Below are positions 1 through 62,560 of a stretch of DNA of 64,000 nt, piece after piece (the first letter of the stretch is position 1; each line of letters opens with the position of its first letter). The position numbers and the translations under genes are program-made. The notes beneath the pieces are model-generated. The model was not told the origin of the DNA, made no database searches, and saw only the letters and a program-made list of their open reading frames with translations. The stretch is from Mustelus asterias (Eukaryota): assembly GCF_964213995.1 (NCBI RefSeq), contig NW_027590144.1, positions 1,054,001 through 1,118,000 on the forward strand, given 5' to 3'.

Positions 1-680
1 CCCAAGCTTCAGCCTTCATCAAAGTTCAGAAGTGGGATTTTCACTGATGATTGCACAAAGTTCCGCACCAGTTGCGACTCCTCAGTTACTGACACAGTCT
101 GTGCCCATATGCAGTAAGACTTAGAAAACATTCAGTCTTTGGATAATGAATGACAAGAAACATTCATGCACCACAAGTGGCAGGCAATGACAGTCTCCGA
201 TGAGGGAGATTCCAAACCACTCCCCATGACATTAAATGGCATTACCCATCGCTGAATTCGCCCATTATCAACATCCTGGGAATTATAATTCGTGAAAATC
301 TGAACGAAGAGACGTTTAAATCATGTGGCCACAGGAGCAGATCAGACGCTCGGAGTTCTGCTGTGAACAACGCACCTCCTGAATTCCAAACTCCTATCCA
401 TCATCTACAAGGCAAAAGGCTGGAGTATGAACAAATATCACAGAACAGTCAAGCACAGGAACAGGCTCTTCGGCCCACCAAATATGTGCCGACACAGATG
501 ATTGAATATTCCCTACTTGCCTGACTTGTGCCACTCAAAAGCTCAATGTCATTCTGGAGAAAGTAGCTGGCTCGAAGAACACCCCACCCACCAGCTTCCC
601 AAAGCCTGCCGCCATATTCTCAAAGGAATTCATGGTTTGACAACAAAAGCTGACTTTCCCAGTGACATCAAAATCACATG
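1..680 (+). mobile_element. Old CR1-clade LINE 3' fragment (RT C-terminus and tail)
   Basis: Decayed RT end (ttcactgatgattgcaca = FTDDCT-like); paralogous to 16490-17400. Confidence 0.7.
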
Positions 681-2400
681 AAACAATTTTAAACATACCA
701 TATCTCTGCCTATATTCAGCTAGCTTCTGCGTCTGTCTATATTACAGTAGGCTGCGCCTGGATCACATTCCAGGAGGTCATGTCTAAGCTTTTTCCTGCA
801 CTTGGTTCACTATCAGGTGTTCGTATATGAGACACAGGCCCTGTTTATATTATAATTTCTAAGTTATGGCTGTACTGAGCCATGCTTCTGCTGATCCGAC
901 AAGAGGCCGTGTCTCAATTCTTACTGCCTCAGAACATTAGCCACTGCATACTAAACTGGAGCAACTGCTTCATACATGACACATGTATCTGTCACAGTTA
1001 TTATGCTAATAGTTCGTTAGATTTTGAGAAACTCGATCCTGTTTGCGTTAATGCTGCACCAGTCCATGCATTTATTTATTTAAGACTATATCACGTCTGA
1101 GCTATAATTGCATTTTGCAATACCTCCTAATTGCTGCATTGTCCGTATCTCAGTGTGTATCAGTCTAGGCCCTGTACCAGTAATTATTACAAATAAACTG
1201 GGCTCTGTCTCAGTTTACATCGGTCTAGGTGCTGTATCAGTAATCATTACTAATACACTGGACTCTGTCTCAGTTTACATCTGTCACTGTCCTGTATCTA
1301 TTAGTAATTATTACTAATGCACTTGACTCCGTCTCACTCTAAAGAAATTTAGGTCCTGTATCATTAATTACTGGGCTCTGTCTCAGTTTATATGTATAAG
1401 CTCCTATGTCCAGTAAAACTGCACTAGACACTGTCTCAGTTTTATTTTCCTCGACGTTGTCATATATATTTGTAATGTTTGTTTCATGGGATGTGGGTGT
1501 CACTGAAAAGATCAGCATTTGGCCTTTGACCGTCCCCACATGGCACTCGGAAAGAAACCCATTTCTATTTTGCTGGATCAGGACCCAGTTTACGTTAAAT
1601 TAGAGTCTGTCTCTGTTAATACACTGCTAGACTTGAAATCAGCTTATATTACACTAGCCATACTCTCTGGTTAAGTCATATTTGATCCTGACCCTGTACA
1701 TATTTCACTAGACTGTGTTAGTGTTATGCCTGCACTTAACGTTGCCTCTATTTGAATGATGTCTGCATTTCTCCGCGGTTCTACGAGAAGAAGAGATATT
1801 ATGTTGGATGAAAAACAGTGGTCTCTGGCAGGATTCTGAAACAGGCAGTATTGGATCGACAGTATTTGGTCGGTGCGGGCTTCCAGTGCCGACGGGCCTG
1901 TTCCACAGCAGTAACTTTTCTTGTTCTTTGTTCTGTGTTGACAGTGCATGCTATACAGGTCTTAGTAACCATTTTCAATGCAGTCAGCAGAAGTAGATTT
2001 CAGATAACACTGCTTCTTTTCCTTGTTTAAGAGGATGCAGAGAATTGTGTCCCCCTAAACACTTTCCTCATTACTGGCATTGTCCAGTGCAGTAAAAACT
2101 GAGACCATTTCCAATGCAATATAAACGTGGATAGGGTCAAGTGCAGAAATAAGACTCCATCTAGTTTAATACAAACAGACAGGTCTAAATTAATACAAAC
2201 CGATACAGCGTCTAGTTTGATATAAACTGAAACATGTTGATGCATAATATAAACAGGGACAAGGTCTAATTTAGTATAATCAGAGAAAGCATCTCGTTTA
2301 TTATGTGTAGAGATAGGGTCGAGTGCAACATAAACCGAGGCATGACCTTATATAATAGAAGCTGGCACAGGGTAAATTTACTGTCTAATAAAGAGACTGG
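680..2400. repeat. Degenerate ~28-bp tandem repeat (consensus ~CCTGTCTCTGTTTATATTACACTAGAC), forward ~680-1770 and inverted ~2060-2400
   Basis: Recurring ctgtctcagttta.. units, with a 60-bp higher-order unit at 1141-1320; reverse-complement units gtctagt..aatataaacagagacagg after 2060. Confidence 0.7.
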
Positions 2401-3070
2401 TTCAATCCCCATGAAATCTGGAGAGACGGCCTACTGCCCCATCAAACATTCACAGGACAGGAGTAACATGGGGTTAGCTGTAAAGTTCCCCCATGCATTG
2501 CCAAATTTAACACTCCCAAGTCAGGAATAGCATGATTTAGATACAAAGTGAACCTCCCTCTCACTATCAAAATAAAACATTCCTGGAAAAGGGAGACTGT
2601 CTAGAAAGAGAGTGAAACTCCCTCTACAAAGTCTGCTCAAACACAATGAAGGCATACAGACCAGGGACTCTCTTCTAGGTAAAACCACTTCTGCATTTTT
2701 CCTTCAGAGAATCGGGAGGCAAGTTTCAATTGGTGTTCGGTAGAGGGGGAAGATCCCTCGACACAGTCCCATAAAATACACCCAGGTCAGGTACATCAGA
2801 GATTAGATCCGGATTAAATCTCCCTTTACAAGTAATATCAAATATTCAAAGGGCAGGTACGTGAGTTTAGATGCAGAGTAAATATTCCTCTACACTGTCC
2901 AGTCAAACAGTCCAAGGGCAGGGATAAATACAGGGAAAATTTCTTTGGTACTGCCACATCGAATCCTTGTTACGAGGTACAACACAGGTTAGATACAGAG
3001 GAAAATGTATAAAATATCCCAAGATCATAGAATGCTCAAGAGATCTTTTAGATTAAATCTCTCTCATGGA
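2400..3070 (+). repeat. Degenerate ~65-bp shark-type tandem repeat (..gggttagatacagagtaaagctccctctacactgtccccatcaaacactcccagg..)
   Basis: Repeated ttagatacagag / ctctacactgtcc / caaacactccca motifs; paralogue at ~19825-20100. Confidence 0.65.
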
Positions 3071-3381
3071 TTCCAATTCATTGCGTTGCATTCCTTGCAA
3101 CTCTGGCTGAGAGAATACATTAGGCAACATTGAATTCAGGTTGTGGAGGGAAGACGATGAACTATCGTGAAGAGACAAGACACAGAACCAGAAGGAGAAA
3201 GACAGAGAGACAGAGATGAAACACAGGGAATTTCCACGAACACATTTGCCGTGTTATCACATTTCGGGATCAGATGGATTATTTCCTAATTCTGAACATA
3301 GATATTGTCATGATTTTTTCCCTCATATAATCGATGAATAACTAAAGTATAAAAACAATCATTTCTGGAATCCGTTGATCG

Positions 3382-3580
3382 ATTTGCATGTTTGTCTCTA
3401 TTTCTGTGCTGTGTTGGTGGGGAAATATTTGTTTTGTTTTCGTCAGTCAACAATCTAATCTGGGATTTCTATTTCTGTGTTTATTTACATAAACACCTCA
3501 CTGTTTACAATGAAATGTTCATGGCAGCAAAAACAGATAAACCGTCACTTATTCATTCGTTTCAACTCAAAATAGCGGTT
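3382..3580. promoter_or_regulatory. Conserved non-coding block with octamer (candidate Ig-type enhancer), copy 1
   Basis: ATTTGCAT 3382-3389; FOX-like TGTTTAT/ATAAACA/TGTTTAC; AGATAA; 13 differences in ~200 bp versus 20421-20620 while the flanks are much more diverged. Confidence 0.5.
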
Positions 3581-3894
3581 ATTTTAAGAATATTAACAGT
3601 TGGTTCAAAATGAATAGAAATCTTTTTTAACATACATTACACCAGATGCTATTTAATTAAATGAATAAATACATTCTATTTCAGAATTTGTTCTGAAAGT
3701 TCTGATGTTACAATAAATAAAGTATCTGTGAGCAGGCTGGTATTCCACTGAATGTTAATTTGATTGATGATCTAAATTGCTTCAACTCGACAAGTTAAAA
3801 CAAAGAGAACTGATGTTTGAAATATTCCTGTCATAATTAGTGATCAGACTCACACGAGGGGAGAATAAAAAATCCAGTGTGGTTATCACTAAGT

Positions 3895-4380: not shown

Positions 4381-4469
4381 GCTGCTATGATCAGCAGAGG
4401 AATGAATATATTCGCATTAATCTCTCAGCACTTCCAACGTATTACAACTTTCATTTTGGTAGAGCTTAC

Positions 4470-4735
4470 ATTTATAAAACGCTTTACCGGACTTCATGTA
4501 GTCCCAAAGTTCTTAAAACTCACTAATGTACCTTTGCTGAATTTAGTCACTGCTATCATATTGCAAATACACCAGGTAATGTACGTACAACAAACTCCCA
4601 CAAACCGAGATGTGATAAATTGCCAGTAAATTTGTGATTTTGTTTGAAGAATCAGTATTAAGGTAGGATATTGGGGAGAACAGCCTTGCTCTTTAGAATT
4701 ATATCAATGAGATTTTGCACCCTGGCATCGATTTT
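4470..4735 (-). mobile_element. Ancient Deu-domain SINE (SacSINE1/AmnSINE-like) fragment
   Basis: tagtcactgct..ctcccacaaac..gatgtgataa resembles the Deu domain; paralogue at ~20810-21075. Confidence 0.5.
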
Positions 4736-5076
4736 AAATGTGAATCTGGTTCTCTATCTGCTTATGCACACTGACCTGCTCAGTCGCATTTGTGTTGCTT
4801 TAGTTTTAGATTTCCAGAATCGGCAGCACTTGACACTGTTGTTATTGATCCTCTGGATGTGAGCATCACTGACAAAGCCAACATTTAGTTGTCCCTGCTG
4901 AGAAGGCGGGTGTGAACCACCTGGTTGAAACCTGCCCTCTGGATGATTTTATTATTTGTTTTTCCATAGCAGCTTTGATACAACTGACTGGCCTGACCGG
5001 CAATTTCAGTAGTGGCTAAGAGTAATTTTCATCATAGTGGAATTGGAGTCTATGCAGAACAGACAGGGTAAAGATA

Positions 5077-5577
5077 GGAATCTTCTGTTTTCAGTTATTT
5101 CCAAAGAGACGATGTCGTTTAAAGTATAAAAGCAAATTACTACGGATGCTGGAATTGAAACCAAAAGAGAAAATGTTGGAAAATCTCAGCAGGCCTGGCA
5201 ATATCTGAGGAGAGAAAATAGCTGACATTTCGAATGTTTTGACAAAGGGTCATCTGGAATCGAAAAGTCAGTTATTCTCTCTACTTACAGATGCTGCCAG
5301 ACTTGCTGAGGTTTTCCAGCATTTTCTCTTTCCGTTGTTTGAAGTGTCTTTGGTTGGGTAAATTGATTCTGAATCCCTGGGGCGGAGGAATTGTAGGTTG
5401 ACCCAAGACTATCGTACTGAAGAAGACACTGTAAACACTGTTCAGGGACCTGTCGGACCCAGACCATCCAGTCACTGCCAACATTGAATGCGTTGGCTTT
5501 GCAGGTCAGTCTCAAAGAGTTTCAGGGGCGCCCAGTTTCTGCCTCTCGCTGACTCAACGCAACCTCCGATTCGACAC
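5077..5577 (-). pseudogene. IGHV: Immunoglobulin heavy-chain V (IgM-type VH) pseudogene
   Basis: Minus-strand translation VESEVALSQREAETGRP*NSLRLTCKANAFNVGSDWMVWVRQVPEQCLQCLLQYDSLGSTYNSSAPGIQNQFT/TKDTSNN, resuming after the 5126-5333 insertion as IVSLEI/LKTEDS; Cys23 (5501-5503) and Trp41 (5459-5461) present; stop at 5522-5524; frameshifts; acceptor AG mutated to AA; YYC and RSS missing. Confidence 0.9.
5126..5333. mobile_element. Palindromic (foldback) Penelope-like short insertion with ~12-bp TSD
   Basis: gagaaaatgttggaaaatctcagcagg... vs ...cttgctgaggttttccagcattttctc inverted arms; TSD gtcgtttaaagt (5114-5125) / gttgtttgaagt (5334-5345). Confidence 0.7.
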
Positions 5578-5619
5578 TTGTAAAAATATCTAAAATCCTA
5601 TGAAAATAAAACGCCACGC

Positions 5620-5885
5620 ACTTCGGACATACTCTCTCACCTTTTCCCATCGGGAACAAGGTACAAAAGTCTGAGGACATGTATAAACCGACTCAAAAAC
5701 AATTTATTTCCTGCTGCTATCAGACGTTTGAATGGACCTCCGCCGCATTAAGTTCATCTTTCTCTACACCCCAGCTATGACTGCAAAATTTACATTATTC
5801 ACTCTCTCCCTTCCTTCCCTATATACGTTATGCTCTGACTGTATAGTGCGCAAGAAACAATAATTTACACTGTGTACTAATTAAG
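5620..5885 (+). mobile_element. Rex1/Babar-like LINE 3' end
   Basis: tacaaaagtctgaggacat..ccgactcaaaaac..ttcctgctgctatcagac..gcgcaagaaacaata; the same tail occurs reversed at ~58375-58725. Confidence 0.6.
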
Positions 5886-5953
5886 TGTCTTTATTTCTGC
5901 ACCTCTTCACAAGGGAATGGACATAAACAGATGACATTACCTTATCAGGGTAA

Positions 5954-5974
5954 AGACGTCAGTCTGATTTGCAA
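5954..5974 (-). promoter_or_regulatory. CRE-like and octamer-like motifs upstream of the VH pseudogene (putative promoter relic)
   Basis: TGACGTCT (minus strand, 5954-5961) and ATTTGCAA (5967-5974) about 380 bp upstream of the V exon. Confidence 0.3.
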
Positions 5975-6114
5975 TAATTCTGTGTCTCTAACACATTACA
6001 GCGAAATATAATTCATTGGAAGAATTATTATCGAATTATGTAACTTAATGCTGGGATGATTGTGTTTCAGGTGTGGATAGCTATCACTGTAATTTGGGAC
6101 TGGATATAAGAAGA

Positions 6115-6450
6115 AGAGAAGCAGTGGCCTCGTGTTATTATCGCTAGACAATTAATCCACAAACTCAACTAATGTTCTCAGGACCCGGCTTCGAATCCCG
6201 CCACGGCAGATGATGGAATTTAAATTCAGTAAAAACATCTGGAATTAAGAATCTACTTATGACCATGATATCATTGTCGATTGTGTAAAAACCTATCTTG
6301 TTCATTAATGTCCTTGAGAGCAGGAAATATGCCGTCCTTACCTCATCTAACCTACATGTGATTGCAGAGCCACAGCAATGTATTTAGCTCTCAACTGCCC
6401 TCGACAATGGGTGGGCAATAAATGCTGATCAGCCAGCGGCACCCATGTCC
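6115..6450 (+). mobile_element. tRNA-derived SINE with CR1-type tail
   Basis: Box A/B-like head (gcagtggcc..ggcttcgaatccc); tail gggcaataaatgctg..cccatgtcc shared with the old LINE family. Confidence 0.65.
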
Positions 6451-6748
6451 ATAGAATCCCTGCAGAGCAGAAGGAGCATATCGGGCCCGCAGCGACAACG
6501 CTCCCACCCAGGCCCTATTCCCATCCCTGCTAATTCATATATTCCCTGCTAATTCACTTGATTCTATGGGACAATTCATCATCGGCAATCAACCGAATCG
6601 GCATATCTTTGGACCATGGGAGTAAACAGGCAGACAATTGGAGAATGTGCAGACTACACACAGACAGTGACCCATTCCGGGAATTGAACCACGGTCCCTG
6701 ATGCTGTGAAGCAGCAATGGTAACCACTATGCCACCTTGCCGCCCACG
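6450..6748 (-). mobile_element. HE1-like V-SINE
   Basis: Reverse complement of gggcggcaaggtggcatagtggtta.. Confidence 0.75.
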
Positions 6749-6840
6749 AATAAATTAACAAAATAAACTCCTTATCTGATACAATGTTACACCTTATATT
6801 TTCCCAACAGCTCCTTAACCCTGTGAAAATTAACGGTGAA

Positions 6841-7950
6841 AGGAAACTTCTTGACTTACAATTAAGCATTGAGTTGACAGAGAAACATAAAATTGACATT
6901 GACTTTTGACAAAGAAGCTTTTGAATTAGAACGGACACGGCAATCAGGAAAGTTCTCCTTCAGCATCCAAGTCATGACAGTTCATTTTATAGGCCAGCAG
7001 CTGGTATTGGGAACACAGGACATCAGGACTTTGCGGCATAATGCATAATATCACAAGAATAAATATTTTATCTTTCACTGAACCAGGTTATGAACTGGTC
7101 ATTTCTTCACTCATTGGCAGTTATGAGAGGGACTGTTAAATAATCGAAACCAGATTATGCTGGACAACAGAACACGTTGTACATCAGGCATAAGTTTTTA
7201 ATGAGGAGCAGAACATTGAGAATTTTCCAGAAATCCCCGCTGTTCAAGGTAGATATATGATTTTCTTTTACTTTTAATTATTTTCATTTTTGTGCCTTTA
7301 CACTGACCTCATTGGACTGAGGGATTGGGGACATCAACATATTTTTCCTGCACTTCATGAAGTTGTTCATAAAGAGGCTTTAATTGTTGGAAGGACATTT
7401 CTTTGGAGGCTATACAAATGAAATAGCATCAAGTCAATTGACTAGTTTCCGATACTTTTTAATCACATAATGAAAAGTGCATTCATTTAAAATATTTGCT
7501 TAGAAGAAAAGCCATTTAAAATGTGCCTTCCTTTTGGGAATAAAACATTTATTGTGTAACTGACGAAGTCCCATGTTATCCTTACAGATTCACGTTAATC
7601 TGTCCTACGCAGTATTTGGCAACAGTCCAGCCTGCTGCCAAATACCCAAAAACATTTACAGGAAGCATCTGAGGGTGTTTGTTCAGTAAATCAAAAACCT
7701 GTTTCCTCAGTACTGAACACTTGGCTGCAAGCCAACTTCAAACTCTCAGCATTGTCAATGGGGCCTATTTATAAACAAATCTACCCAGCAACAGTACTGG
7801 AGGCAATTTAATTATTTTTAAGTTGCAAACATCTATGAATGTTTGCCATTTCTTCGGAAAAGAAAGTATTCAGCTCCTCTGGCACCTTGTTAGCAACAAT
7901 GATGATCTCTCCAACACAACAAAACATTGATGGATGGATATTAAAAAAAT
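6841..7950 (+). mobile_element. Fossil hAT transposase fragment
   Basis: KLLDLQLSIELTEKHKIDID..AIRKVLLQH at the 5' end; QYWRQFNYF*VANIYECLP / SEKKVFSSSGTLL..NIDGWILKK (7792-7950) resembles the hAT dimerisation domain (WW..P.LA..YL..PATS..SER.FS.AG). Confidence 0.55.
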
Positions 7951-8029
7951 ACCGGCAGATTATGAGAGTTGATTCAGAGAGGTGATATATTTTATACTAG
8001 AAAAACATGTATGCTTGTGTTTTATTTCA

Positions 8030-8385
8030 CTTTACCCTTCCATGGGACGTCAGAATCTCTGGAAAGGCCAACATTTATTCCCTTTGCCTAATTTCTCTTG
8101 AACTGAGTGGTATGCTAGGGCATCTCAGAAGGCATTGCCCAGTTAGTTATATTGCTGTCCGTCTGCAGTCACATCCTGATGAGACCAGGTAGGGATGGCA
8201 GATTTCCTTCATTGGGGAATCAGAGAGGTTTATCTGGTCGCTGTCAGTATGTATTCCAGATTTATTGATTGAATTCAAATTCCACCAGCTGCCAGGGTCG
8301 GATTTAATCTCGTGTCTCCACGTCATTGGCCTGGGCTTCTGGATTACTGGTACACTGGCATTAAGATTACGCCACCATCTACCCA
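8030..8385 (-). mobile_element. tRNA-derived SINE (same family as 6115-6450)
   Basis: Reverse-complement head/tail similarity. Confidence 0.55.
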
Positions 8386-8579
8386 ACAATAAAGGAATGT
8401 TTGCGTTGATGCAGGGATGAACGATAGTTGGATGCCTGAATGTTTTGATTGAGGAATCAGTGAGTGGATGAATGGATGTGACGATAGCTTGTCCTAAAAT
8501 TTGCTGTTCTACATGCACATATTTGTGATTTACTACTTCAAAAATCGAAGCAGGTCCTTTATTCCAAGTGTGTCAGTAT

Positions 8580-10590
8580 ATAAGACCATAAGTCCATAAA
8601 ACATAAGACATAGGAGCAGAATGAGGCCACTCGGTCCATCGAGCCTGCTCCGCCATTCAATCATGGCTGACATTGTTCTCATCCACATTCTCTTGCCGTT
8701 TCCCCATAAGCACTGATCCTCTTATTACTCACAAACCCCTCTATCTTTGTCTTAAAAACACCCAATGACCTCGCCTCCACAGCCTTCTGCGGCAAGAGAT
8801 CCACAAATTTACCACACTCTGGCTGAAGAAATTCCTCCTCATCTCTGTTTTAAAGGATCGTCCCTTTAGTCTGAGGTAATGCCCTCTGGTTCTACTTTTT
8901 CCTACGAGTGGAAACATCCTCTCCACGCCCACTCTATCCAGGCCTCGCAGTAGCCTGAAAGTTTCAATAAGATCTCCCCTCATCCTTCAAAACTCCAACG
9001 AGTACAGATCCAGAGGACTCAACCATTCCTCATACAGCAAGCGCTTCATTCCAGGAATCATTCTTGTGAAACTCCACTGGACCCTTTCCATGGCCAGCAC
9101 ATCCTTCCTTAGATATGGGGCTCAAGACTCACAATACTCCAATTGGGTCTGACCAGAGCCTTGTACAGCCTCAGAAGTACATCCCTGCTCTTGTATTCTA
9201 GCCCTCTCGACATGAATGCAAACATTGCATTTGCCTTCCTGAACCTGCACTTTAACCTTAAGAGAATCTTGAACAATGACTCCCAAGTCCCTTCGTATTT
9301 TTGATTTCCTCAGCATTTTCCCATTTAGAAAATAGTCTATGCCTCCATTCCTCCTTCCAAGCGCGTAACCTCACACTTTTCCAAATTGAATTCCAGCTGC
9401 CACAACTTTGCCGACTCTGCTAACCTGTCCAAGCCCTTCTGCAGCCCCCCTGCTTCCTCAATACTACCTGTCCCTCTACATATCGTTGTATCATCTGCAA
9501 CCTTAGCAACAGTGCCTTCAGTTCCTTCCTCCAAATCGTTAATGCATACTGTGAAAGGTTGTGGTCCAGGCACTGACCCCTGAGGCACACCACTAGTCAC
9601 CGGCTGCCATCCTGAGAAAGACCCCTTTACTCCCACTCTCTGCCTTCTGCTAATCAACCAATCCTCTATCCATGAAAGGATCTTACCCTTAACACCATGT
9701 GCACTTAACTTATTTAACAGTCTCTTTTTCGGCACCTTGTCAAAGGCCTTCTGGAAATCTAAATAAATCATGTCCACTGGCTCTCATTTATCTAACTTCC
9801 TTGCTACCTCCTCAAATAACTCTAACAGATTTGTCAGATATTACCTCCCCTTCAGAAAACTGTGCTGACTCAGTCCTTCTTTATCATGCACTTCCATGCA
9901 CTCTGCGATCTCATCTTTAATAATGGAATTTAAAGTCTTGCCAATGAACGAAGCCAGGCTAACCGGCCTATAATTTCTCGTGTACTGCCTCCCTCCCATC
10001 TTAAACAGTGGTGTTGCATTCGCTACTTTCCAGTCCTCTGGTACATTCCCTGCCTCCAGTGATTTCTGAAAGACCACCACCGATGCTTCCACAATTTCCT
10101 CAGTTATCTCTTTTAGAAACCTGTGGTGTAGTCCTTCCGGTCCAGGTGAATTATCCACCTTCAGACCTTTCAATTTCCCCAGAACCTTCTCCTTAGTGAT
10201 GGCCACTGCAGTTACCTGTGCCCCCGGACTCTCTTGGAGCTCTGGCATTCCACTGGTGTTTTCCACCGTGAAGACTGATGCAAAGTAACTATTCAGGTCC
10301 TCTGCCATTGCTTTGTTTCCTATTATTAGTTCTCCAGTCTAATTTTCCAGTGGTCCAATGTCAATGTTTGCGTCTTTCTTACCTTTTTTTATATTGAAAA
10401 GAACTCTCCCTGTCTTATTTGATATTACTAGCTAGCTTACACTCATATTTCATCTTCTCCCCTCTTATTGCTTTTTTAGTTGTCCTCTGCTCGCTTTTAA
10501 AGACGTCCCAATCCTCTGGCTTCCCACTAATCTTTGCCGCTTTGTATGCTTTAACTTTTGCTTTAATGCTGTGCTTGACCTTTATGCTGT
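8580..10590 (-). mobile_element. 5'-truncated CR1 LINE (ORF2 fragments)
   Basis: ORFs with [46 protein letters not shown]; (cataaga)n tail at ~8580. Confidence 0.95.
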
Positions 10591-10702
10591 GCGACAACCT
10601 TTAGTCCTTCCAGATTTTCTCGGTGAATCCAATCCCCGAGATATCGGGAACAAATGAACTAAGAGCAGTCTGACTTTTTTTCCATCTGCTGATGGTGACT
10701 CG

Positions 10703-11275
10703 AGTCATAGAGTCATAAAGGTTGAGAGCATGGACACAAGCATTTCGGCCCTACTTGTCCATACCGCCCTTTTTATTAACCGTTAAGCTTGTCCCAATTT
10801 CCCGCGTTTGACCCATAACGCTCTGTACTCATCCTACCCATGTAACTGTCTAAACCCTTTTTAAAAGACAAAATTGTACCCGCCTCTACCACTACCTCTG
10901 GCAGCCTGTTCCAGACACTTGCCACACTCTGTGTGAAACAATATCCCCTCTGAACCATTTTGTATCTCTCCACTCTCATCTTAAACCTATGCCCTCTCGT
11001 TTTAGACTCCTCTATCATTGGGAAAATATATTGAATATCGAGCTGATCTATGCACCTCATTATTTTATAGACTTCTATAAGATCCCCCCAAGCCTCCTAC
11101 GCTCCGGAGAAAAAGTCCCAGTCTATCCAGCCTCTCCCTACAATTCAAACCACCAAGGTCTCGTAGCGTTCTAGTAAAACTTTTCTGCATTCTTTCTAGT
11201 TTAATAATATCCGTTCTATTATAGGGTGACCAGAACTGTACACAGCATTCCAAGTGTAGCCTCACCGATGTCTTC
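10703..11275 (-). mobile_element. CR1 3' fragment
   Basis: HLECCVQFWSP, WNRLPEVVVEA; agtcatag tail repeat. Confidence 0.9.
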
Positions 11276-11497
11276 AAAATCTTCAAATCCAAGATGGAAA
11301 GAGGGATTAGGTTGAGGGGGGAGGATTGTAATATTTGGAACATATGGCCCTTTCTAGTGCAACAAATCACTCAACATATCATCACCTAAATTAGCGAAGG
11401 TAACAGGCTAAAAAAATAATGAGGCAATTGAAATGTTGTGAAACTCACTGGACAGATCCAAGTGGTAAATGACTTTCCAATACTGTGTAAGTGTGCA

Positions 11498-11825
11498 AGG
11501 GCGGCACGGTGTCATATTGGTTAGCCCTGCTGCCTCACAACGCCAGGGACCCGGGTTCAATTCCGTCCTCAGGTCACTGTCTTTGTGGAGTTTGCAGTTT
11601 CTCTCCTTGTCTGTGTGGATTTCCTCCGGGTACTCTGGTATCCTCCTGCAGTCCGAACATGTGCAGCTCAGGTTGATTGGCCATGCTGAATTAACCCTTG
11701 TGTCAGGGGCATTAGTGGGGTTAATATGAGGGGTCACGGGAATAGGGCCTGGTTAGGATTGAGGTCGCTCCAGACTCGATGGGCTCAATGGTCTCACTCT
11801 GCACTGTAGATTCTTTGTTCCATGA
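11498..11825 (+). mobile_element. HE1-like V-SINE, full length
   Basis: gggcggcacggt..gggacccgggttcaattcc..V-domain..CR1-type tail. Confidence 0.85.
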
Positions 11826-12239
11826 ATAATTAATCTGGATCTTAAGATTCTATACCGTCACATTAGACATTTTACATTATATATAACATTAGATACACGT
11901 CCTTTCAGTTGTACAGTCACTTTAAAAATGGTTACACACTCCAGTTATATATCAGGGATTTATGTGTGATGATGAGGTGATTACGTGTCAATAAAGCGCA
12001 GAGGCTGCTGGGTAGCTGCTCATTATCCTCGGTGTGATTTAATTCAACTTCCCAGTGAATTCTGGGACAGATTTGATTCTTTGGTGACAGAAAGGCCAAA
12101 GTGACCTCAATAAATTTGAATCTCAATAAACTACAATAAATAAACTGCAATTATATTTGTACCAAATAAAATGCTGAAAATAATTTGTGAAATATTTATT
12201 TGTTCTTGTGATTTGGAGATTATTAGTAATATGAGCGCC

Positions 12240-13190
12240 AGGAAATGACCATCTCCAAAAAGAGAGAATCTACCCATTGCTCCTTGTCATTCAATTATAT
12301 TACGATACTGAATCACCCACTATAAACATCGTCGGGGTTACCATTGGCTAATCGCTGAACTAACTCGATATATAAATGCTCCGGCTGGAATATCAGGTCA
12401 GCTTGCTGTGAGTAACTCACCTTCTGACTCCCCAAACCTGTCCACCACCTATAAAACTACAACTCAGGAGTGTAATAGAGTTCTTTCCACTTGCTTGAAT
12501 GAGTGCAGCTCAAACAACATTCAAAAAGCTTTATAGCATTCAGGAAAACGCAGGCGGCTTGACTAGCATAGCATTTGCAAATGCTCACTCCCTCCACCAC
12601 CGACAAACAACAGCAGCATTATACACCATCTACGGTTTCCTCCGGGTGCTCCGGTTTCCTCCCACAGTCCAAAGATGTGCGGGTTAAGTTGATTGGCCAT
12701 GCTAAAAATTGCCCTTAGTGTCCCGGGATGCGTAGGTTAGAGGGATTAGTGAGTAAATATGGAGGGATATGGGGGTAGGGCCTGGGTGGGATTGTGGTCG
12801 GTGCAGACTCGATGGGCCGAATGGCCTCTTTCTGTGCTGTAGGGTTTCTAGGTTTCTAAGTTTCTAAGTATCTACAAGTTTCACTTCAGGAACTCATTAG
12901 GCAACACCTTCCAACCACAGGACTGTTACCAGTTGGAAGGACAGGGGTAAGAGTTACCTGGGAATATCACCTGTAAATTCCACTCCAAGTCAGTCATAGA
13001 GCTGACTTCGAAAAATATCGCCCTTCCTTCACTGTCGCTCGATTGAAATCCTGGAACACCCTCTGTAACAGCACTGTGTGAGTACATACACCACAGGCTT
13101 CACAGCAATTCACGAAGGTAGCTCACCACCAGCTTACTAAGAGCAATTAGGGATCGGCAACAACTTTTGACCTAGCCAGCAACGATCACA
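12240..13190 (+). mobile_element. Old CR1-clade LINE 3' fragment with a young 5'-truncated HE1 SINE inserted (~12632-12870)
   Basis: Homologous to 16670-17400 and 52547-53200; SINE V-domain and (tttctaag)n tail. Confidence 0.75.
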
Positions 13191-13330
13191 TCACTTAAAT
13201 TAAAACGTAAATATATTAATGTCTATGAATGGTTGGTAACTGGCGTACAAAATTATGCAACTTTGTGAATGGATGGCAATTGGTGAAAATAAATACCAAT
13301 TCTGTGAATATTTATGATCTTCTCTTTCTT

Positions 13331-13845
13331 AATGGAAGATAGGATGCACTCCACAGGAGATGCTTGATTCAAAAGCACAACACTACCCGGAAAAAAAGCC
13401 GCCAGAGGACACTGCAACAACTACAGATATATATACATCATTGCCAGTGACACATCTGAAAACATTCATCTGTTTGAAGATCCGGATTATCCTGAAGCAC
13501 AATGTTGTGTTTTTAATGGAAGATTGACTCTGGAAAATATCTGCTTCATATTCCCAATGTACCTATCTTTACCTTCATCAATCTCATCAAGACATTCAAC
13601 ACCGGTAGGAGAGCAGGGACTACCATACTTGGGAAAAAGTCGCACTCCATCAGGACTCCTCGGTCTCATTCATGACACAGAAAACGACAACATAAAACCA
13701 CAATTGGTAGCTTCATGGGCAGCATTTGTAACAGAGCCAACCTCTCAAAAATTGTCCTTCTCAGTCATCAACAAAGGTGACATTTGAAAAAGAAACCACT
13801 CTGAAATTGATGTGTTTACTCTGTGTCTATTTTTTATTTTAAATG
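13331..13845 (+). mobile_element. Fossil hAT transposase fragment
   Basis: RMHST/EMLDS resembles TRWNST..ML; YLGKSRTPSGLLGLIHDTENDNIKPQLVASWAAFVTEPTSQKLSFS..*KRNHS..LFFILN keeps hAT dimerisation-domain spacing (YL..R.P..L..EN..P.L..P.S..FS..KRN). Confidence 0.5.
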
Positions 13846-14434
13846 GAAGGACGCCGGTTATCATTGTGAAATTGATTTGTAAACAATATGACGTTTTTCA
13901 GACAACGCACACACACACACGCACACACACACACATTTTCCTGCAACTTAAGACTCCATCTTTGCTTCCTGGGGGGCTTAAGAGACAATTACCCCAACTA
14001 TCTTTCAGATGGAATGAAGAACAAATACATTTTCCCCAGCACCATGTTTGCTGAACTGAACATTAAAGGTCCCATTGTCTCCAACAGCGCCCTGGTCAGC
14101 ATTCCTCCTTCTAACCAAAATGAACAAACATACATTACCATGGATTGAGGCATTATGCTTCGATGCTGACCTGGCATCATAGGAACATAGGAGCAGAAGT
14201 TCCCCTCCAAGCCACTCACCATCCTGACTTGGAAATATATCGCCGTTCCTTCACAATCGCTCAGTCAAAATCCTTAAATTTCCTCCCTAACGGCATTGTG
14301 GGTCTACCCACAGAACATGTACTGCAGCGATTCAAGAAGGCAACTCACCATAACCTTCTCAAGGGCAACTAGGTATGGGGAATAAATGTTGACCAGCCAG
14401 CGAAGCCCATGTCCCAAGAATGAATAAAAAAAGC

Positions 14435-15170
14435 AGACGCAGGCCATTCAGCCTCTCGAACTCGCCCGCCATTCATAAGATCATCGCTGATCTGTGGCCA
14501 AACCCTATGTACCTGCGCTTGGCCCATATCCCTTGATACCCCTGTTCAATAAAAAAATCGATCTCAGAGATAAATCTAACAATTGAACCAGCACCCACTT
14601 GCCTTTGCGGAAGAGAATTCCAAAAGTCCACCACTCTCTGTGCGTAGAAATACTTTCCATCAACTCTCCTGAACGGCTTGGCCCTGTTTTTTTAAAATTA
14701 TGGCCCTTTATTCTAGAGCCTGCAACTTATTGATCCGCCCGATCCTACCCGTAAATATTTTGTAGATTTTTGTCAGAACACCCCTCAACCTTCTGAATTC
14801 GAGAGGAAAAGTCCCAATTTGTCTAATTTCTCCTCGCAACTTTACCCCTAAAGGCCAGGTCTAATTCTTGTGAACGTGCGTTCAACTCCCTCCAGGACCA
14901 AAATCTTTGCAAAGGTGTGGTGCCCAAACCTGTGCACAGTACTCCAGGTGGGCTCTAACCAGGATTTTGCATAATTGCAGCATTTCATCTGCATCCCTAT
15001 ACTCCAGTCCTTTAGATACAAAGGCCAGAATTCTGTTGACCTGCTTGACTATTTTTTGCATCAGTTCGTGGCATTTTAAGAAGCTATTCACTTGAACACC
15101 CAAATCTCGCTGGGCATCCACTAAATTTTACTTTCTGCCTTCTAAAAACTACCTTGATCTATCATTTGGA
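14435..15170 (-). mobile_element. CR1 3' fragment
   Basis: QRDLGVQV, HLEYCAQVWAP. Confidence 0.85.
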
Positions 15171-15589
15171 TTATTTGACTTTTTGTGGCACTATCTAAGC
15201 CGTTATGAATATTGTAAATAATTGAGACCTCAAGACAGATTCCTGCGGGACACAACTTAACCTGTATTATTCAGCAACGTACATCTCATCTATAATTCGT
15301 TGCACCTTAAATTTGAGCACTTTCCGCAGAAGGAGATGTGATCTTACATTTATGAATGTGAATTCTTTGTATATTACTCGCATAAATCATACCTGACAGC
15401 GATATATTTACAGTAACTGTAATTGCAGAATTTTGCCAGCAGATGGAATTGGCACCTTGATGGTTTACATTACATGAAGAAGGCACTGCCTCAATAAATA
15501 CTACACTGGACCCTAACTTTGCAGTTCTGCCACATGCAGTCCTGAATGGTGATGGACATTTAAACAAGTAACTGCAGCAGGAGTCTCAA

Positions 15590-17400
15590 ATGAAAGCCCC
15601 ATTCTTAATGATGGGGGAGCTCTGCAAAAGGGAAAAGAAACAAGACTGAAACAATTGCTACCATCTTCACCCAGAAGATGTTCCATCTCGGCCTCTCCCT
15701 GATGCCCCGAACATCACAGATGCCAGTCTCCAAGGAGGTCAACTCATTCAGCATGATAACATGGAGGATAGGAATAGGAGTAGACCATTCAGCTCCTGGA
15801 GCCCGCTCCGCCATGCAATATGATCATGATTGATCTGTGGGCCTAACCCTGTGCTGAAAGCATTGGATACTGCAAAGATTATGGATCCTGACAATATTTC
15901 AGCAATAATAATAACGATTTGTGCTCTGGAGCTAGCTGAGCCTTAGCCAATCTATTCAAGTATAGCTACATCACGGTCACATACACAACAGTGTGAGAAT
16001 TGGCAGACATGACCTGTTTCAGAAGGTAGGACAAACCCAACCCGACCAACTACCGCCCAATGCGTCCTCACTCGATCAACGTAATGGGAACTATGAAGGA
16101 TCATCTAAAAAAGTAAGAATAATATAATAATAACAATGCTGCTACAACTACAAATTCTGCTCAATGAGGCTCTGTTTGGGTCCCACTCGGAGCACTCAGT
16201 TCCAGAACTCACTGAAGCTTAGCCCAAATATAGTGGAAATAGCTGCTTTAATGAGGTGAGGTGAGAGTGCCGGCCCTCGGCATCAACGCAGCACTTGACC
16301 GATTGTGGCATCAAGAAGCCCGAGCAAAGCTGCAGTCAATGGGGATCCGGGGAAAAAAAAACATTCCACTGGCTTCAGTCATACCGAGCACAGAGTAAGA
16401 TGGTTGTGGCTGTTGAAAGCCAATCATCTCAGTCACAGGGCATTTGCTGAAGGAACTCCTCAGGATAGTGCCCTCGGCCTAATATTCACGCTTCAATACA
16501 AGCTCAGAAGTGGGACGTTCACTGATGATTGCACGATGTTCAGCACATTTACAACTTCTCAGATACTGAAGCACTCCGTGTCCGTAAGCAGAAAGACTTA
16601 GAAAACATTCAGGTTTTGGCTGTGAAGTGGCATGTGAAATTCGCGCCACCCAAGTGACAGGCAATGACCCTTTCAGGTAAGGGAGATTGCAATCATCTCC
16701 GCTTGCCATTAATGGAATGACTACAGCCGAAACCCCACTATCATCATTCTGGGAATTGCCATTGATGGAAAATTGAACTGGGACAGCCATGTAAATAATA
16801 TTGCTACAAAAGCAGGTCAGATGCTGGGAATTGTGCGCTAAGTAACTCACCTCCAGATTTCCCAAACCTATCCATCATATAAAGGCAAAAGTCAGGATTG
16901 TGATTGAATATTCTCCACTTGCCTGGCGTATGGTCCTGAACCAACCCCCAAAAAGCTCGAAACCACCCAGTAAAAAGCAGGCGGCTGGATGGACACCCCA
17001 CCAACCACTTTAAACATTCACTCTCTGCATCACAGATGTACAACTCTAGTCGTGTGACCCATATACAACTTGTGTAGCAGCAACATAATCCTTTGGTAGC
17101 AACTTCCAAACACATTAACTCTGACACTAAAATGGCAAGGGCAGCAGATGCATGAGAACACAATCATCTGCAAATGCCCATAAAACCTCCACACCGTCTT
17201 GACTGGGATCTATATCACTATTTTTTCAGTGTCAATGGATGAAAATCTTGCAACTCCTTTCCTATCAGCACTGTATGTGTACTTACTCATATGGAATGCA
17301 ATGATTTAAGAAGAGGGCTCACCAGCACATTCTCAAAGGAAAAATTATAAGTGGCAACAAATCCTACTTTACCAGTGACACCAAAACCTCATGAAATGAT
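15590..17400 (+). mobile_element. Old CR1-clade LINE ORF2 fragment
   Basis: LKALDTAK..PDNI, NYRP, GTPQDSALG, FTDDCT motifs with stops and frameshifts. Confidence 0.8.
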
Positions 17401-17608
17401 TTTGAACATGTCATATCTCTGATTACGTTCAACTGGCCCCCACGTCTGTTTGTATTGCAACAGGCCATGTCCCAATCACATTACAGCATGTCCTGTCTCT
17501 GTTGTTTCTCTACTCGGCTCATTATCAGTTGTTCATAAGTGAAGCCAAGGCCTGTTTTAACGATGGTTTCTGAATTATGACTGTGCTGAAATATGTTTCA
17601 GTTAATCA

Positions 17609-17895
17609 GGGCGGCACGATGGCACAGTGCCAGGGACCCGGGTTCAATTCCCAACTTGGGTGACTGTCTGTGTGGAGTCGGCACGTTATCCTTGTGTCTG
17701 CGTGGGTTTCCTCCGGGTGCTCCGGTTCCCACTCACCGTCCGAAGGAGGTGCTGGTTTCGTGCATTTGGGCCATGATAAATTCTCCCTCAGTGTACTCAA
17801 ACAGGCGCCGGAGTGTGACCACTCGGGGTTCTTCACAGTAACTTCATTGCAGTGTGAATGTAAGCCTACTTATGACACCAATAAATAAGCTTTAA
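17609..17895 (+). mobile_element. HE1-like V-SINE with alternative tail
   Basis: V-domain plus ..cacagtaacttcattgcagtg..aataaataa tail; absent from duplicate copy 1. Confidence 0.8.
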
Positions 17896-19049
17896 ATCTT
17901 CAATCTGGGAAGAGACTGTGTCTCAATTCCGACTGCATCAGAACCTGTATCTGTCACTCCTATACTGGAGCAACATCCTTCTTGCGTTACACAAGTTTCG
18001 GTCACTGTCATTACTCTAATGGTTCATTAGATCTAATAAACTCGACACTGTTTTAGTTAATGCTGCACGAGTGCATGTATTTGTTTATTCAACACTGTGC
18101 CCTGCCTCTGTTATTATTGCATCATGTGATCCTTCTAATTTGCTGCATTGTCCATATCTCAGTGTATGCCAGTCTAGATCACATATTAATAATTATTACC
18201 AATGCACTATCCTTTTTCTGAGTTCATATCAGTCTAAATATCGTATCTCTAATCATTAACAACACAGTAAATTCTGTCTCAGTTTTTATCAGTCTAGGTA
18301 CTGCTTCAGTAATGACCATTAACACGCTGGCCTCTGTCTCAGTTTATGTCAGTCCAGAATCTGTATCAGTAATTACTGCTAATGCGCTAAGCTCTGCCTC
18401 AGTTAATATCGGTTCAGGCCTGTATCAGTAATTGACACGATGTGTCTCAGTTTATATCGCGCAAGTTCCTGCATTCGGTTAAATTGCACTAGACACCATC
18501 TCAGTTTTTCTTGTACTCGTTGATGTCATCCATATTTTTTAAATATTTCTTTCATGGGATGTGGGTGTCTCTGGAAAGGCCAGTATTTTGCCTTTAACTT
18601 CCCACAAAGCACTCGGCACGACCTCATTTCTATTTCACTGCATAAGGCCTCTGTTTATATTAAAATAGATCCTGTCTCTGTTAATACTCCGCTTGACCGG
18701 AGCTTAGTTTATGATGCACTAGACCCAATCCCTGTTTATATGACATTTGACCCTGACTCTGTCTATATTTCGCGAGACCAGGTCACTGTTGATACTGCAG
18801 TATAGTATGCCTCTGTCTGAACTATGGCTCCATTAACATTACTCCACGGTTCTGTGAGGTAGAGAGATAATATAATGCATAAATATGCTGGGCTAAAAAA
18901 TCTGAATTGAAACGGAAAGTATTGGATCGAGAGTGTATGCTGCGCAGGATTTGATATCGATTTTCAATGCAGTCAGTAGAATGAGCTTTCAAATATCACT
19001 TCTTCTTTTCCAGTTCCCAAGACTAGTCTCCATCCGTCAGAGTTGTACC

Positions 19050-19155
19050 CCCACTCACCTGAAGAAGGGGCTCAGAGCCTCGAAAGCTTGTGTGGCTTTT
19101 GCTACCAAATAAACCTGTTGGACTTTAACCTGGTGTTGTTAAACTTCTTACTATA
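19050..19155 (+). mobile_element. Penelope-like terminal fragment
   Basis: cacctgaagaagggg..cgaaagcttg..aataaacctgttggactttaacctggtgttg. Confidence 0.5.
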
Positions 19156-20420
19156 GGAGGATGCAGAGTATCATGTTCCCATAGCCACTTTTCACATTAT
19201 TGCGCATTATCCAGTACAGTAATAACTGAGTCCGTGCCCAATATAAAATGAACAAAGAACAACAAAGAACAAAGAACAATACAGCACAGGAACAGGCCCT
19301 TCAGCCCTCCAAGCCCGCGCCGCTCCCCGGTCCAGGATTGAATCCTGAATCCAGGATCCCCGCCCAATTTTCCAGCCTATCTACATACCAATATCCTATC
19401 CACCGAGCTGTCCCTCACAGCTACGATGCTTTGTTCATTACAACCTATTAACTCACCCCCACCCCCCCATTCCAGACCATGTGATCTCCAGGGAGAGGCG
19501 AAAACCCAGAGTGAAAAACCCCAGGGCCAATATGGTCAACATGAACATGAACATGGTCAAGTGCAGAACTAAGACCGCATCCAGTTTAGTACAGAGACAG
19601 GTCTACATTAATAAAAGCAGAGTCATTGTCGATCTCAATATGAACAGAGACATGGTGACGTGTAATATTAACAGAGACAGCATCTAGTTTATTATAAACA
19701 GAAAGTACGTCTAGTGTAATGTGAACAGAGACAAAATCTTCTTTAATATAAACCGAAACAGGGATTAGTTAATTTAACATCAGCAGAGACAGGTCACAGA
19801 TGAGTGCAATATAGAGACAGGGCCTAGAGTCCCATCAAACATTCCAAGGTCAGGTGTAGCATGTGGTTAGGCTCCGAATGTAAAGCTCCCTCCACAGTGC
19901 AACATTAAACACTCCCAAGCAGGTGTAGCGCGGGATAGATAAAAAGTGAAACTCCATCCACACTATCTCAATCAAGCATTTCCAGCAAATGAAGACTGTT
20001 TAGAAACAGTAAAAACCTCTCTACACTGTCCATTGAAACAATTGGACGCTGGGACAGAAAGGGTTAGATACAGGGAATGATCAGGAGAAAAGCTCCCTCT
20101 GTAGATTGAATTAAATCCATTTAGTTAGAGACCTGAAAATAGGCCTGAGAGAATACATTAGCTGGAGTTTGACTTGAAGTTGTTGAGTAAAAACAATGAC
20201 CCATCATGGAGAGACAAAACAAGACACAGAATCAGAGAGGAGAAAGACAAAGAGAGATAAAGCACATTAAATCGCCGCAAATATATTTGCCGTGTCCTTA
20301 TATTTTGTGATTAGAGGGAATCTTTCTTAATTTTGAACATAGATAATCATAGCTTGTTTTGCGTATATAACTGATGAAAAAATATGTCCAAAAACAATCA
20401 CGACTGAAATCCAATGATTG

Positions 20421-20620
20421 ATTTGCATGTTTGTCTCTATTTCTGTGCTGTGTTGATGGGGAAATATTTGTTGTGTTTTTGTCAATCAATAAATCTAATC
20501 TGGGATTTCTATTTCTGTGTTTATTAACATAAACACCTCACTGGTTACAATGAGATGTTCATGGCAGCAAAACCAGATAAACCGTCATTTATTCATTAGT
20601 TTCAATTCAAAATAGCGGTT
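20421..20620. promoter_or_regulatory. Conserved non-coding block with octamer, copy 2
   Basis: ATTTGCAT 20421-20428; ~93% identical to 3382-3580. Confidence 0.5.
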
Positions 20621-21741
20621 TCTTTAAAGTATATTGACAGCAGGTTCAAAATCAATAGAAGCTTCGTGAATACCCATTTGACCAGACGCTATTTAATTCA
20701 AATAAAAAAATTAGACATGTTAAAACATCAGGCAGAGGAGTGACGATAATCGCATTAATCGCAGATCTTTTAACATATCAATTCTTGCATTTTATAATAA
20801 CATTTGGAAAGGCCTTGCATTTTTATAACGCTTTACCTGACCTTAGGTCGTCCCAAACCATTTAAAACTCACTGATATATTTTGCTGAAGTTATTCACTG
20901 CTGTAATATTGGACAGACAGCAAGTATTTGGTGCACAGCAAGCTCCCACAAAGCGAGATGTGGTAAACGAACAGTCATTTTGTGATTTTAGTTGAGGAAT
21001 GAGTGGCCAGGATACTGGGCAGGACAGTCCTGTTATATTGAATTTTATCAATGAGATTTTACGTTCTGTCATCGGCCTGAAATAAGAATCTGTTTCACCC
21101 ACTGCTAATGCCCGCTGACCTGCCTTTTTTGTTGTTTTACTTTTAGATTTCCGGAATTCGCAGCAGTTTGCACTGTTCTATTCATTCTCTGGATATGGGC
21201 ATCACTGACAAAGCCAGCATTTATTGCCCATCCTGAGAAGGCGGTTGCGAACTACCGTTTTGAAATTATTGCCCTCTGGTCGGTTTTATTTGTGTTTGAC
21301 TTTCTGCAGCAGCTTTGAAACACCTGAATGGCTGTTTTGACAATTTCAGAGGCACGTAAGGGTCAGCTTCATCACTGTGGAACTGGAGTCACATGTAGGA
21401 CAGACAGGCTAAACATAGCTTTTTTTATTGATTCGTGGGCCTTGCACATTACTGGCTGGCCACCATTTGTTGCCCATCTCTAGTTGCCCGTGGAGGGCAG
21501 TTGAGAGTCAACCACATTGCTGTGACTCTGGAGTCACATGGAGGTCAAACAAGGTAAGAACGGCAGATGTCGTTCCCTAAAGAGGCATGAATAAACTAGA
21601 TGGGTTTTTACAACTATCAACAATGGTCTCATAGTCATCAATAGATTCTTAATTCCAGATAGTTTTAATTGATTTCAAGTTCCACCATCTGCCGTGGCGG
21701 GATTTGAACTCAGGTCCTCAGAACATTGACTGAACATTAGG

Positions 21742-31734: not shown

Positions 31735-32020
31735 TGGCGCAGTGGTTAGCAGCGGTTAGCACTGCTGCCTCACAGTGCTGGGGACTCGAGTTCGATTCCT
31801 GGCTTGGTCACTATATGTGTGGAGTTTGTACGTTCTCCCTCTGTCTGTGTCGGTTTCCTTCCACATTCCAAAGCTGTGCTAGTTAGGTGCATTGGGAATG
31901 TCAAATTCTCCCTCAGTGTACCCGAACAGCTGCCAGAGTGTGGCGACTGGGGGATTCTCAGAGCCGCTTCATTGCAGTGCTAATGCAAGCCGACATGTGA
32001 CTAATAAATTAACTTTAAAT
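31735..32020 (+). mobile_element. HE1-like V-SINE with alternative tail
   Basis: tRNA head, partial V-domain, ..cttcattgcagtg.. tail. Confidence 0.75.
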
Positions 32021-51080: not shown

Positions 51081-51557
51081 ATGGGGGTGAAACTCTGTCT
51101 CACTCTGGTTATTGTCCTGATTACAGGTCTGTCATTTTGAACGTCTGCGTGAAATCTGCCAGTCACCACATTCATTCCCCATTTCCATCTCGAGGGGATT
51201 ATTCCGTTGTTGTTACTCCTTCTAACCCACTGCGTGTCTGTTCCCTATTTTCAGACATGAGTAACGGTGACTCAGTGTCCCAGTCAGGACCAGGAGTTGA
51301 AGCAGCAGAGGGTGAAGAATCAGCAATACCCGGCAGTTACTCGGGACAGAGTTTAACTGTACAACATTACCTGTTCTGGTATCGCCAGTATACACACCGA
51401 GCTCCTCGTTAACTGCTCAGAGCCGCTAATGTACCGAAACGGCTCCAGGCTTTTTACACTGCAGCGGGAATCTCAACCTGAAACAAAGCACTTTTCACTT
51501 GCCCATGAAAGATTTGAAGGTGACAGACAGCGCCGTGTATTACTGTGCACTGAGAGC
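51081..51557 (+). pseudogene. T-cell receptor alpha/delta-type V pseudogene (leader exon 51081-51126; V exon 51255-51557)
   Basis: Leader MGVKLCLTLVIVLIT with phase-1 GT; acceptor ttttcag; DSVSQ..YLFWYRQY..AP..DLKVTDSAVYYCALRA; Cys23>Gly (51332-51334), stop 51410-51412, frameshift. Confidence 0.92.
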
Positions 51558-62245: not shown

Positions 62246-62560
62246 AGGCAGGCCGGGCAAGGCAGGCAGCAGCTCACCTCCCTCCTTCCTCCCCGCAGGG
62301 AGCGAAAAACAAACAAACCCAACAAAACAAAAACAAAAACCGGGCGTCTCCGTGAGCAAAAACGAGAGAAAAAAAAAAATAAAGGTACTCACAAAAAAAA
62401 GAAAAAAAAACAAACCCACAGTTTCCGCCCGGCTCCGACCCGGGCCCCCCGCTACTCGGGCGAACGTGAACTCACCCCACCCCGGAAACAAAGTGCAGGC
62501 GCTGCCCCAGAGGAGGCACGTTTCAGGCCGTCTGAAGCTCAATTCTCATTCAGAAAGACC

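Follow-up and report, generated by a model that had tools for sequence, protein, structure and literature searches.

The DNA analysed here (the window) is a 64,000-nucleotide stretch of the Mustelus asterias genome (NCBI RefSeq assembly GCF_964213995.1, contig NW_027590144.1, forward strand; contig C112, positions 1054001-1118000). It carries two copies of a conserved block of about 200 bp, copy A at 3382..3580 and copy B at 20421..20620, 5′ of an IgM heavy chain cluster. Coordinates are those of the window, negative ones lie to its left, and features have no assigned strand unless one is given. The IgM cluster, left of the window on the minus strand, is intact. It comprises a leader, a variable (V) exon, two diversity (D) segments, a joining (J) segment, Cmu1-4, transmembrane (TM) exons and recombination signal sequences (RSS), and its Cmu4 is 96% identical to the IgM heavy chain of Triakis scyllium. 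Copy A lies 22.5 kb from the VH of this cluster and is the middle of three tandem copies; its footprint by profile hidden Markov model (HMM) is 3361-3620. Copy B is the outermost, with an intact octamer, and no V remnant was found beyond it (20600-51000). The third copy, C, is at −10415, 8.7 kb 5′ of the intact leader ATG.

Self-comparison showed that each tandem unit consists of a 5′ flank plus a V. The V of the outer unit is an IgM-type pseudo-VH on the minus strand (5080..5588) with an in-frame stop and a repeat insertion at ~5126-5331, truncated before the YYC codons; neither an RSS nor a leader exon was found for it. Its 5′ flank (5589..20420), interrupted by repeats, leads to copy B, 15 kb 5′ of this pseudo-V. 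Copy A is 12 kb 5′ of a second pseudo-V, which lies outside the window at −8960, and the flank between them within the window (1..3381) shares homology with 16485-20420 as well as with the flank of the intact VH. The 5′-most duplicated part of the flank (4390..5077) is homologous to 20727-21418 at 73% and its end abuts the truncated pseudo-V, which places the tandem-duplication junction at ~5077-5080. One or two degenerate pseudo-VH, produced by such flank and V duplication, stand 5′ of many intact IgM VH. Those at 5080-5588 and −9129 to −8960 are possible conversion donors, though they are truncated and ~72% identical.

The junction explains why copy A stands 1.5 kb 3′ of a pseudo-V. Because the block was duplicated tandemly together with the V as part of its 5′ flank, it is a 5′-flank element, 8.7 kb from the intact VH. 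The sequence-only reading had placed the block ~1.5 kb downstream of the VH, where an intronic enhancer would be expected. The distance was right (the VH runs from 5588 to 5080 on the minus strand), but the VH is a pseudogene at a junction and not a functional gene, and the intronic position had to be given up in favour of one in the 5′ flank of IgM VH. The J-C intron of the intact cluster contained no block homolog by blastn or profile HMM. Across 264 kb spanning two clusters, the profile HMM gave four strong matches, all 5′ of VH and none in a J-C intron. The J-Cmu intron has a perfect octamer of its own at −25105. It was rejected as a conserved element, being perfect in 3 of the 6 clusters with the homologous segment and not common to the divergent cluster described below.

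Global alignment of copies A and B gave 200 columns with 12 mismatches and one gap, which confirms the 13 differences first counted between 3382-3580 and 20421-20620. The flanks (3180-3370 and 3581-3660) had 72 mismatches in 264 columns, a divergence of ~27% that bears out the earlier estimate of 70–80% identity by eye. Block and flanks differed at P 1e-9 (Fisher test, with the block picked post hoc). The sliding-window comparison proposed in the sequence-only reading placed the block as the best 200-column window (94%) among 8,787 collinear A/B columns. Its score was matched by 0/2000 column shuffles and by 39/2000 shuffles of 25-column blocks, the latter because part of the alignment has a background of ~87%. 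For C against B (6,652 columns), the score of the block was matched by 0/2000 under both shuffle types.

The census showed that the block accompanies most of the IgM clusters checked. A 20-mer from the block gave 125 matches at ≤1 mismatch, and each block DNA search was scored on the best 40 of 175 candidates. Independently of the block, 56 IgM VH sites were located through their RSS pattern. An intact-octamer copy was found 5′ of 42 of these 56 sites, 8.1–14.9 kb from the V RSS (median 9.8 kb), by a census pattern that covers the A-, C- and D-type octamer contexts and not the B-type. All 42 copies share one orientation, and none of the 56 sites has a copy within 20 kb on its 3′ side. Conversely, an IgM V-RSS or J lies no more than 32 kb from 70 of the 74 intact-octamer copies. 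This association, together with the fact that a repeat library made from non-IgM DNA left the block unmasked, led us to reject the block as part of a transposon. Seven of the 14 census misses were examined: one has only a distal broken copy, one (on C158) is intact, and five are visibly damaged, through an altered J RSS, stops in V, a J frameshift, loss of the leader or truncation of V.

The V-J region and 5′ flank of 25 IgM clusters were examined. In ten, an intact-octamer copy accompanies an open V. The octamer of the copy is broken in eight, of which four are germline-joined, two damaged and two atypical clusters. No copy was found in 27–37 kb for six (four of them damaged, one intact and one fully joined), and one stops at a contig edge. 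The sample is not unbiased, because 7 of the 10 intact-copy clusters were picked through block matches. Five further stretches contain decayed copies and no intact IgM segment in the 18–35 kb examined. Broken-octamer copies are thus found mostly beside damaged, joined or orphan clusters, and tandem duplication of flank and V has given up to three block copies per cluster. Germline-joined IgM clusters (VD-D-J, VDD-J or full VDJ) were seen on C112:1.19 Mb, C91:2.41 Mb, C597, C105:0.08 Mb, C667, C1179, C71:7.32 Mb and C71:4.72 Mb. The clusters examined suggested a link of germline joining to octamer loss, which was not adopted since the census was not significant (P 0.12).

Substitution rates were compared on a fixed tree of 29 copies, for which 30 of the 74 distinct copies were hand-picked and one was dropped for its replaced flank. 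The block/flank ratio of branch length was 0.36 on intact-octamer branches (~66 vs 265 substitutions, P 4e-16). It was 1.21 on broken-octamer branches, to each of which the sorting of lineages by octamer itself adds just one or two substitutions. Since broken-octamer lineages evolve at the flank rate or faster, the DNA of the block is not a mutational cold spot. In a diversity sample of 30 A and 30 B copies, taken as best-scoring matches and so slightly biased toward conservation, diversity in the block was 2–3 times below that of the flanks. The block had 7 fixed A/B differences and no shared polymorphism in this sample. A/B pairs from the same cluster were no closer (0.065, n = 18) than pairs from different clusters (0.064, n = 882), so there was no cis excess, and A, B, C and D formed separate groups in the block tree. 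These results show that the block is constrained, and purifying selection accounts for this better than conversion does. The sequence-only reading had offered selection or gene conversion as causes of the conservation; the rates uphold the former, and ongoing conversion as the cause is not supported. Ancient conversion retains a small probability.

An unjoined IgM cluster at C71:1.56-1.58 Mb, the most divergent one found, also has the block. Its V shows 46% amino-acid identity to the IgM V, and a leader, one D, J and Cmu1-4 were found. The block is 6.4 kb 5′ of this V, has a perfect octamer and matches at 73% over 252 columns (E 6e-33), compared with 74% for Cmu1, 75% for Cmu2 and 60% for the V exon. 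Over 41 kb, the non-repeat matches to the divergent cluster were Cmu1-4, the secretory and TM exons with their untranslated regions, J, D and the block. The block is therefore the only non-repeat, non-coding segment in common; no unique J-C intron segment was shared, save one short piece that matches three places. The V of this unjoined cluster (C71, ~1,563,600-1,577,100) is by eye nearer to IgW-type V than to IgM V, and the cluster is possibly an old hybrid of an IgW V with Cmu. A PDB search with this V was uninformative.

Parts of the stretch were present in 20 of the 22 listed sequencing runs, which came from eight organisms, shark metagenomes and unlabelled runs. No RNA run was listed as containing it, which bears on expression in neither direction. 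Eight runs were compared with the block region. Six of them cover the block and its flanks, as expected for close relatives. In the other organism (organism H, two runs of one sample), cover at at least 80% is confined to ~3393-3630 and repeat-like bins, with pieces of ~81% identity and a cut-off that hides flanks slightly below 80%. The organism H contigs carry ATTTGCAT at the expected place, in a loose end, and the block may thus be conserved in another species.

The specificity of the block was assessed at other immunoglobulin (Ig) loci. The block HMM was run over 40 and 51 kb 5′ of two IgW-type clusters, over 35 kb 5′ of one IgNAR-type cluster and over 36 kb 5′ of one fully joined IgM cluster, and found no match. 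In two IgL stretches of 40 kb each, which did not span a full 5′ flank, it gave only a match at E 0.13. The IgW and IgNAR results led us to reject a general IgH element. The isotype labels IgW and IgNAR are our reading of the exons; the loci were located by a C1-set search, and a Cmu4 protein search returned neither. The C1-set loci on C185 (70-107 kb, 378-396 kb), C71:2.92-2.93 Mb, C13:60-61 Mb and C8:50-51 Mb comprise IgW-type clusters, an IgNAR-type cluster and two light-chain C exon arrays. The intact VH showed no octamer within 1 kb 5′ of its ATG, even at 1 mismatch. Shark IgH genes are described as lacking the usual upstream octamer in the accessible part of one study (PMC2435157).

The motifs named in the sequence-only reading were all located in copy A. 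The consensus octamer stands at the VH-proximal end of the block on the minus strand (3382..3389, ATTTGCAT), so that the IgM sense strand reads ATGCAAAT. An inverted pair of sites that we take to be forkhead-type lies at 3477..3496 (GTGTTTAT..ATAAACAC), and a third, overlapping site sits in the middle (TGTTTAT, TATTTAC, ATAAACA). The most divergent cluster retains the central site and the right half. The segment 3497..3523 contains the invariant runs CTCACTG, CAATG and TGTTCATG and spans the SOX-like ACAATG (3507-3512); the FOXO-type TGTTTAC within it is found only in copies A and C. AGATAA is at 3535-3540 and is absent from the VH-proximal C copies. Over the five intact copy classes, the longest invariant run is ATTTGCATG, which contains the octamer; ATTTCTGT, ACATAAAC and TGTTCATG are also among the longest, and TNATTTGCAT is present in four classes. 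The clustered transcription factor motifs have thus been kept, with octamer and forkhead runs invariant over all five classes. Six forkhead-type sites occur in copy A, where shuffles give 0.74, and 0/2000 shuffles reach this number (motif chosen post hoc). Lone octamers are common, with 16 in the 264 kb examined and ~12 expected.

Other identities of the block were tried and rejected. A cryptic RSS on the minus strand (CACAGCA, 11-nt spacer, ACAAACATG) was rejected, its heptamer being missing in the divergent intact copy. An 86-codon stop-free frame (3353-3610) is broken among the copies by frame-shifting indels of 1–15 nt, and for this reason the block is considered non-coding. Nine weak Rfam matches were all far below the gathering score, and a structured RNA was rejected on the weak covariation of the five-class consensus fold.

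We consider the block to be probably an IgM-specific distal 5′ enhancer, built of an octamer and forkhead-type sites, a candidate for activity in B cells from a position 6–15 kb upstream of VH. The identification rests on sequence features. The analysis established the position, fixed orientation and copy number of the block at IgM clusters, its constraint, the loss of this constraint where the octamer is broken, and its absence from the scanned IgW and IgNAR flanks. From the proposal of an Ig-type enhancer, the octamer-enhancer identity remains as the best candidate, and the intronic type does not. We expect OCT1 or OCT2, with OCA-B, at the octamer, and forkhead factors at the clustered forkhead-type sites. 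The complex may then loop to the octamer-less VH promoter, with the block supplying the octamer. Limiting factors would allow one or few clusters to be opened per cell, and an opened cluster would proceed to germline transcription, V-D-D-J joining and expression. The copies of one cluster, up to three in number, may act additively, like a small locus control region. Action of OCT factors and OCA-B at Ig enhancers, and OCA-B orthologs in sharks, are reported in the accessible part of PMC13043367.

Several observations weigh against this identification. The E-box (CANNTG) was not found in copies A-D. GGAA, GATA and Ikaros-like sites are not kept in all classes, and the GGAA core was not found in the most divergent intact copy. 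On the D-class stem, the block changed more than the flank (0.041 vs 0.028), and the block comes only 24th of 256 windows when intact clusters of close relationship (median identity 0.90) are compared. Constraint on the outermost copy, 40 kb from the intact VH, equals that on the proximal copies, which fits a boundary element too. A 200-column window at −14399 to −14200 has C/A identity of 96% and C/B identity of ~75%; the tandem units are therefore mosaics, and sequence exchange has occurred at the locus in the past. The cluster on C158 (~552,000-568,000) has an intact leader, V, D, D, J and Cmu1-4 and no block within 37 kb 5′; its 5′ homology ends ~4.9 kb upstream. It may be a natural enhancer-less case, in which either the block is dispensable or the cluster is silent. 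J sites with a V-RSS match carried an intact copy in 27/33 cases and those without in 13/21 (P 0.12), the latter group mixing joined clusters and pattern variants.

Other explanations were weighed against the enhancer. An intronic enhancer like mammalian Emu would fit an octamer-carrying block 1.5 kb 3′ of a VH-like exon, but this exon is the truncated pseudogene at the duplication junction. Neither of the two clusters on the contig showed a homolog of the block in its J-C intron, and no copy occurs within 20 kb 3′ of the 56 VH sites, so position refutes this explanation in this genome and leaves it next to no probability. It is also highly improbable, and largely refuted, that the block has no function and that its copies are kept alike by gene conversion or a mutational cold spot. 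The mosaic C/A window, a trace of sequence exchange, speaks for it. The lack of cis excess, the fixed A/B differences without shared polymorphisms, the separation of A, B, C and D, and broken-octamer lineages that mutate as fast as the flanks or faster all argue the other way, as does the survival of the block both in the most divergent cluster and in organism H.

A boundary or lineage silencer is unlikely, although it accounts for several features. Such an element would shield the IgM cluster from interspersed alpha/delta V of the T-cell receptor (TCR), or damp IgM rearrangement in thymocytes. The block lies on the side of the cluster that faces an interspersed TCR V (window 51.1–51.6 kb), its orientation is fixed and its outermost copy is still constrained; partial rearrangement of shark IgH in the thymus is reported in the accessible part of PMC2435157. 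The best-kept motif is nevertheless an octamer of activator type, and the block is missing from a germline-joined IgM cluster that has a TCR V 28 kb upstream. By eye, with no scan made, no CTCF-like motif was seen. We also give little chance to a promoter that drives a sterile transcript toward VH, or to an exon of a structured non-coding RNA. At the end of the block nearest VH, the sense strand does read ATGCAAAT, oriented as in mammalian VH promoters, and in copy A this strand folds at z −2.9. No TATA-like motif beside the octamer is kept in the alignment of copies, though. No Rfam family reached its gathering score, the five-class consensus fold has 4/52 compensatory pairs and 13 broken cells, and indels of 1–15 nt exclude a coding exon.

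The distal enhancer proposed here resembles known Ig elements in part. In channel catfish, Emu3′ is found 3′ of Cmu and combines two variant octamers with a muE5 site (accessible part of PMC1800861). Like it, the shark block would be centred on an octamer and would regulate the IgM gene of a fish over a distance. Unlike Emu3′, it is placed 5′ of VH, combines a single consensus octamer with a forkhead cluster, and recurs with each mini-cluster; CAGGTG (muE5) was not found in the block, and variant octamers were not searched for. The mammalian Emu lies in the J-C intron and has a single octamer (accessible parts of PMC1800861 and PMC13043367). The shark block is likewise a compact element of ~200 bp with one consensus octamer, tied to the IgM locus. 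The core of mammalian Emu consists of E-boxes and ETS sites. The shark block is unlike it in lying outside the J-C intron, in lacking E-boxes in copies A-D and in keeping no GGAA core across classes. We do not claim sequence homology to mammalian Emu: the block would act like Emu or catfish Emu3′, but its position and motifs are not theirs. It shares the perfect ATGCAAAT with the octamer or decamer of Ig V promoters (accessible part of PMC13043367). The block differs from such promoters in lying 6–15 kb from the VH start, adjacent neither to a TATA box nor to the V start.

The window and its surroundings contain further features. A TCR alpha/delta-type V pseudogene on the plus strand (51083-51570) has a leader and is interrupted by a stop and a frameshift; a CACAGTA heptamer follows it, and an open-frame relative (89%) lies 20 kb 5′ of an IgM cluster on C173. 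Two inverted copies of the 5′ half of one TCR V are located at −83400 and −82000, one of them broken by a repeat. TCR V segments lie between IgM clusters, as described for other sharks in the accessible part of PMC12227049. On the VH side of the block, 1148-1336 and 2117-2628 are degenerate tandem repeats of 60 bp and 27 bp. Non-LTR retrotransposon frames, presumably Tx1-like by their features, occupy 60076-63999 on the minus strand and include a 28-bp minisatellite of 28 copies (61490-62269). ARAGORN gave three tRNA-like matches (31719-31811, 52157-52246, 55307-55380), one with a stop anticodon; they are probably heads of tRNA-derived short interspersed elements.

The accessible part of PMC12227049 describes the antigen-receptor complex of other sharks, with IgM mini-clusters and interspersed TCR V in the same layout as around the window. 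Its main text does not contain the words 'enhancer', 'regulatory', 'upstream' or 'noncoding' and describes no such element. 'Enhancer' and 'octamer' are also absent from the accessible part of a review of fish immunoglobulins (PMC5192425), and that of PMC9936319 treats cartilaginous fish in one passage only. We found no description of a shark IgH enhancer in the open literature searched; most subscription immunology papers and supplements fell outside this scope, so a prior mention is possible. For the activation of shark IgH, limiting factors and rare promoter–enhancer complexes have been proposed, and no shark enhancer is named in the accessible part of that study (PMC2435157).

Sharks have dozens of self-contained IgM clusters, of which one or few are activated per B cell. 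A motif-defined element of 200 bp that moves with IgM clusters and decays where they break is a concrete test object for the limiting-factor model, and clusters with no copy, with broken copies or with up to three copies provide natural mutants within one genome. More tentatively, the block may represent an ancestral IgM enhancer of cartilaginous fish, an octamer–forkhead module 5′ of every working mini-cluster. Clusters would then compete for limiting factors, which would give heavy-chain exclusion among dozens of loci, and loss of the module would silence or retire a cluster. The block bears on the position of the IgH enhancer before the translocon layout. If the ancestral reading is true, this enhancer would have stood upstream of V until, with the translocon layout, control passed into the J-C intron or to a site 3′ of Cmu.
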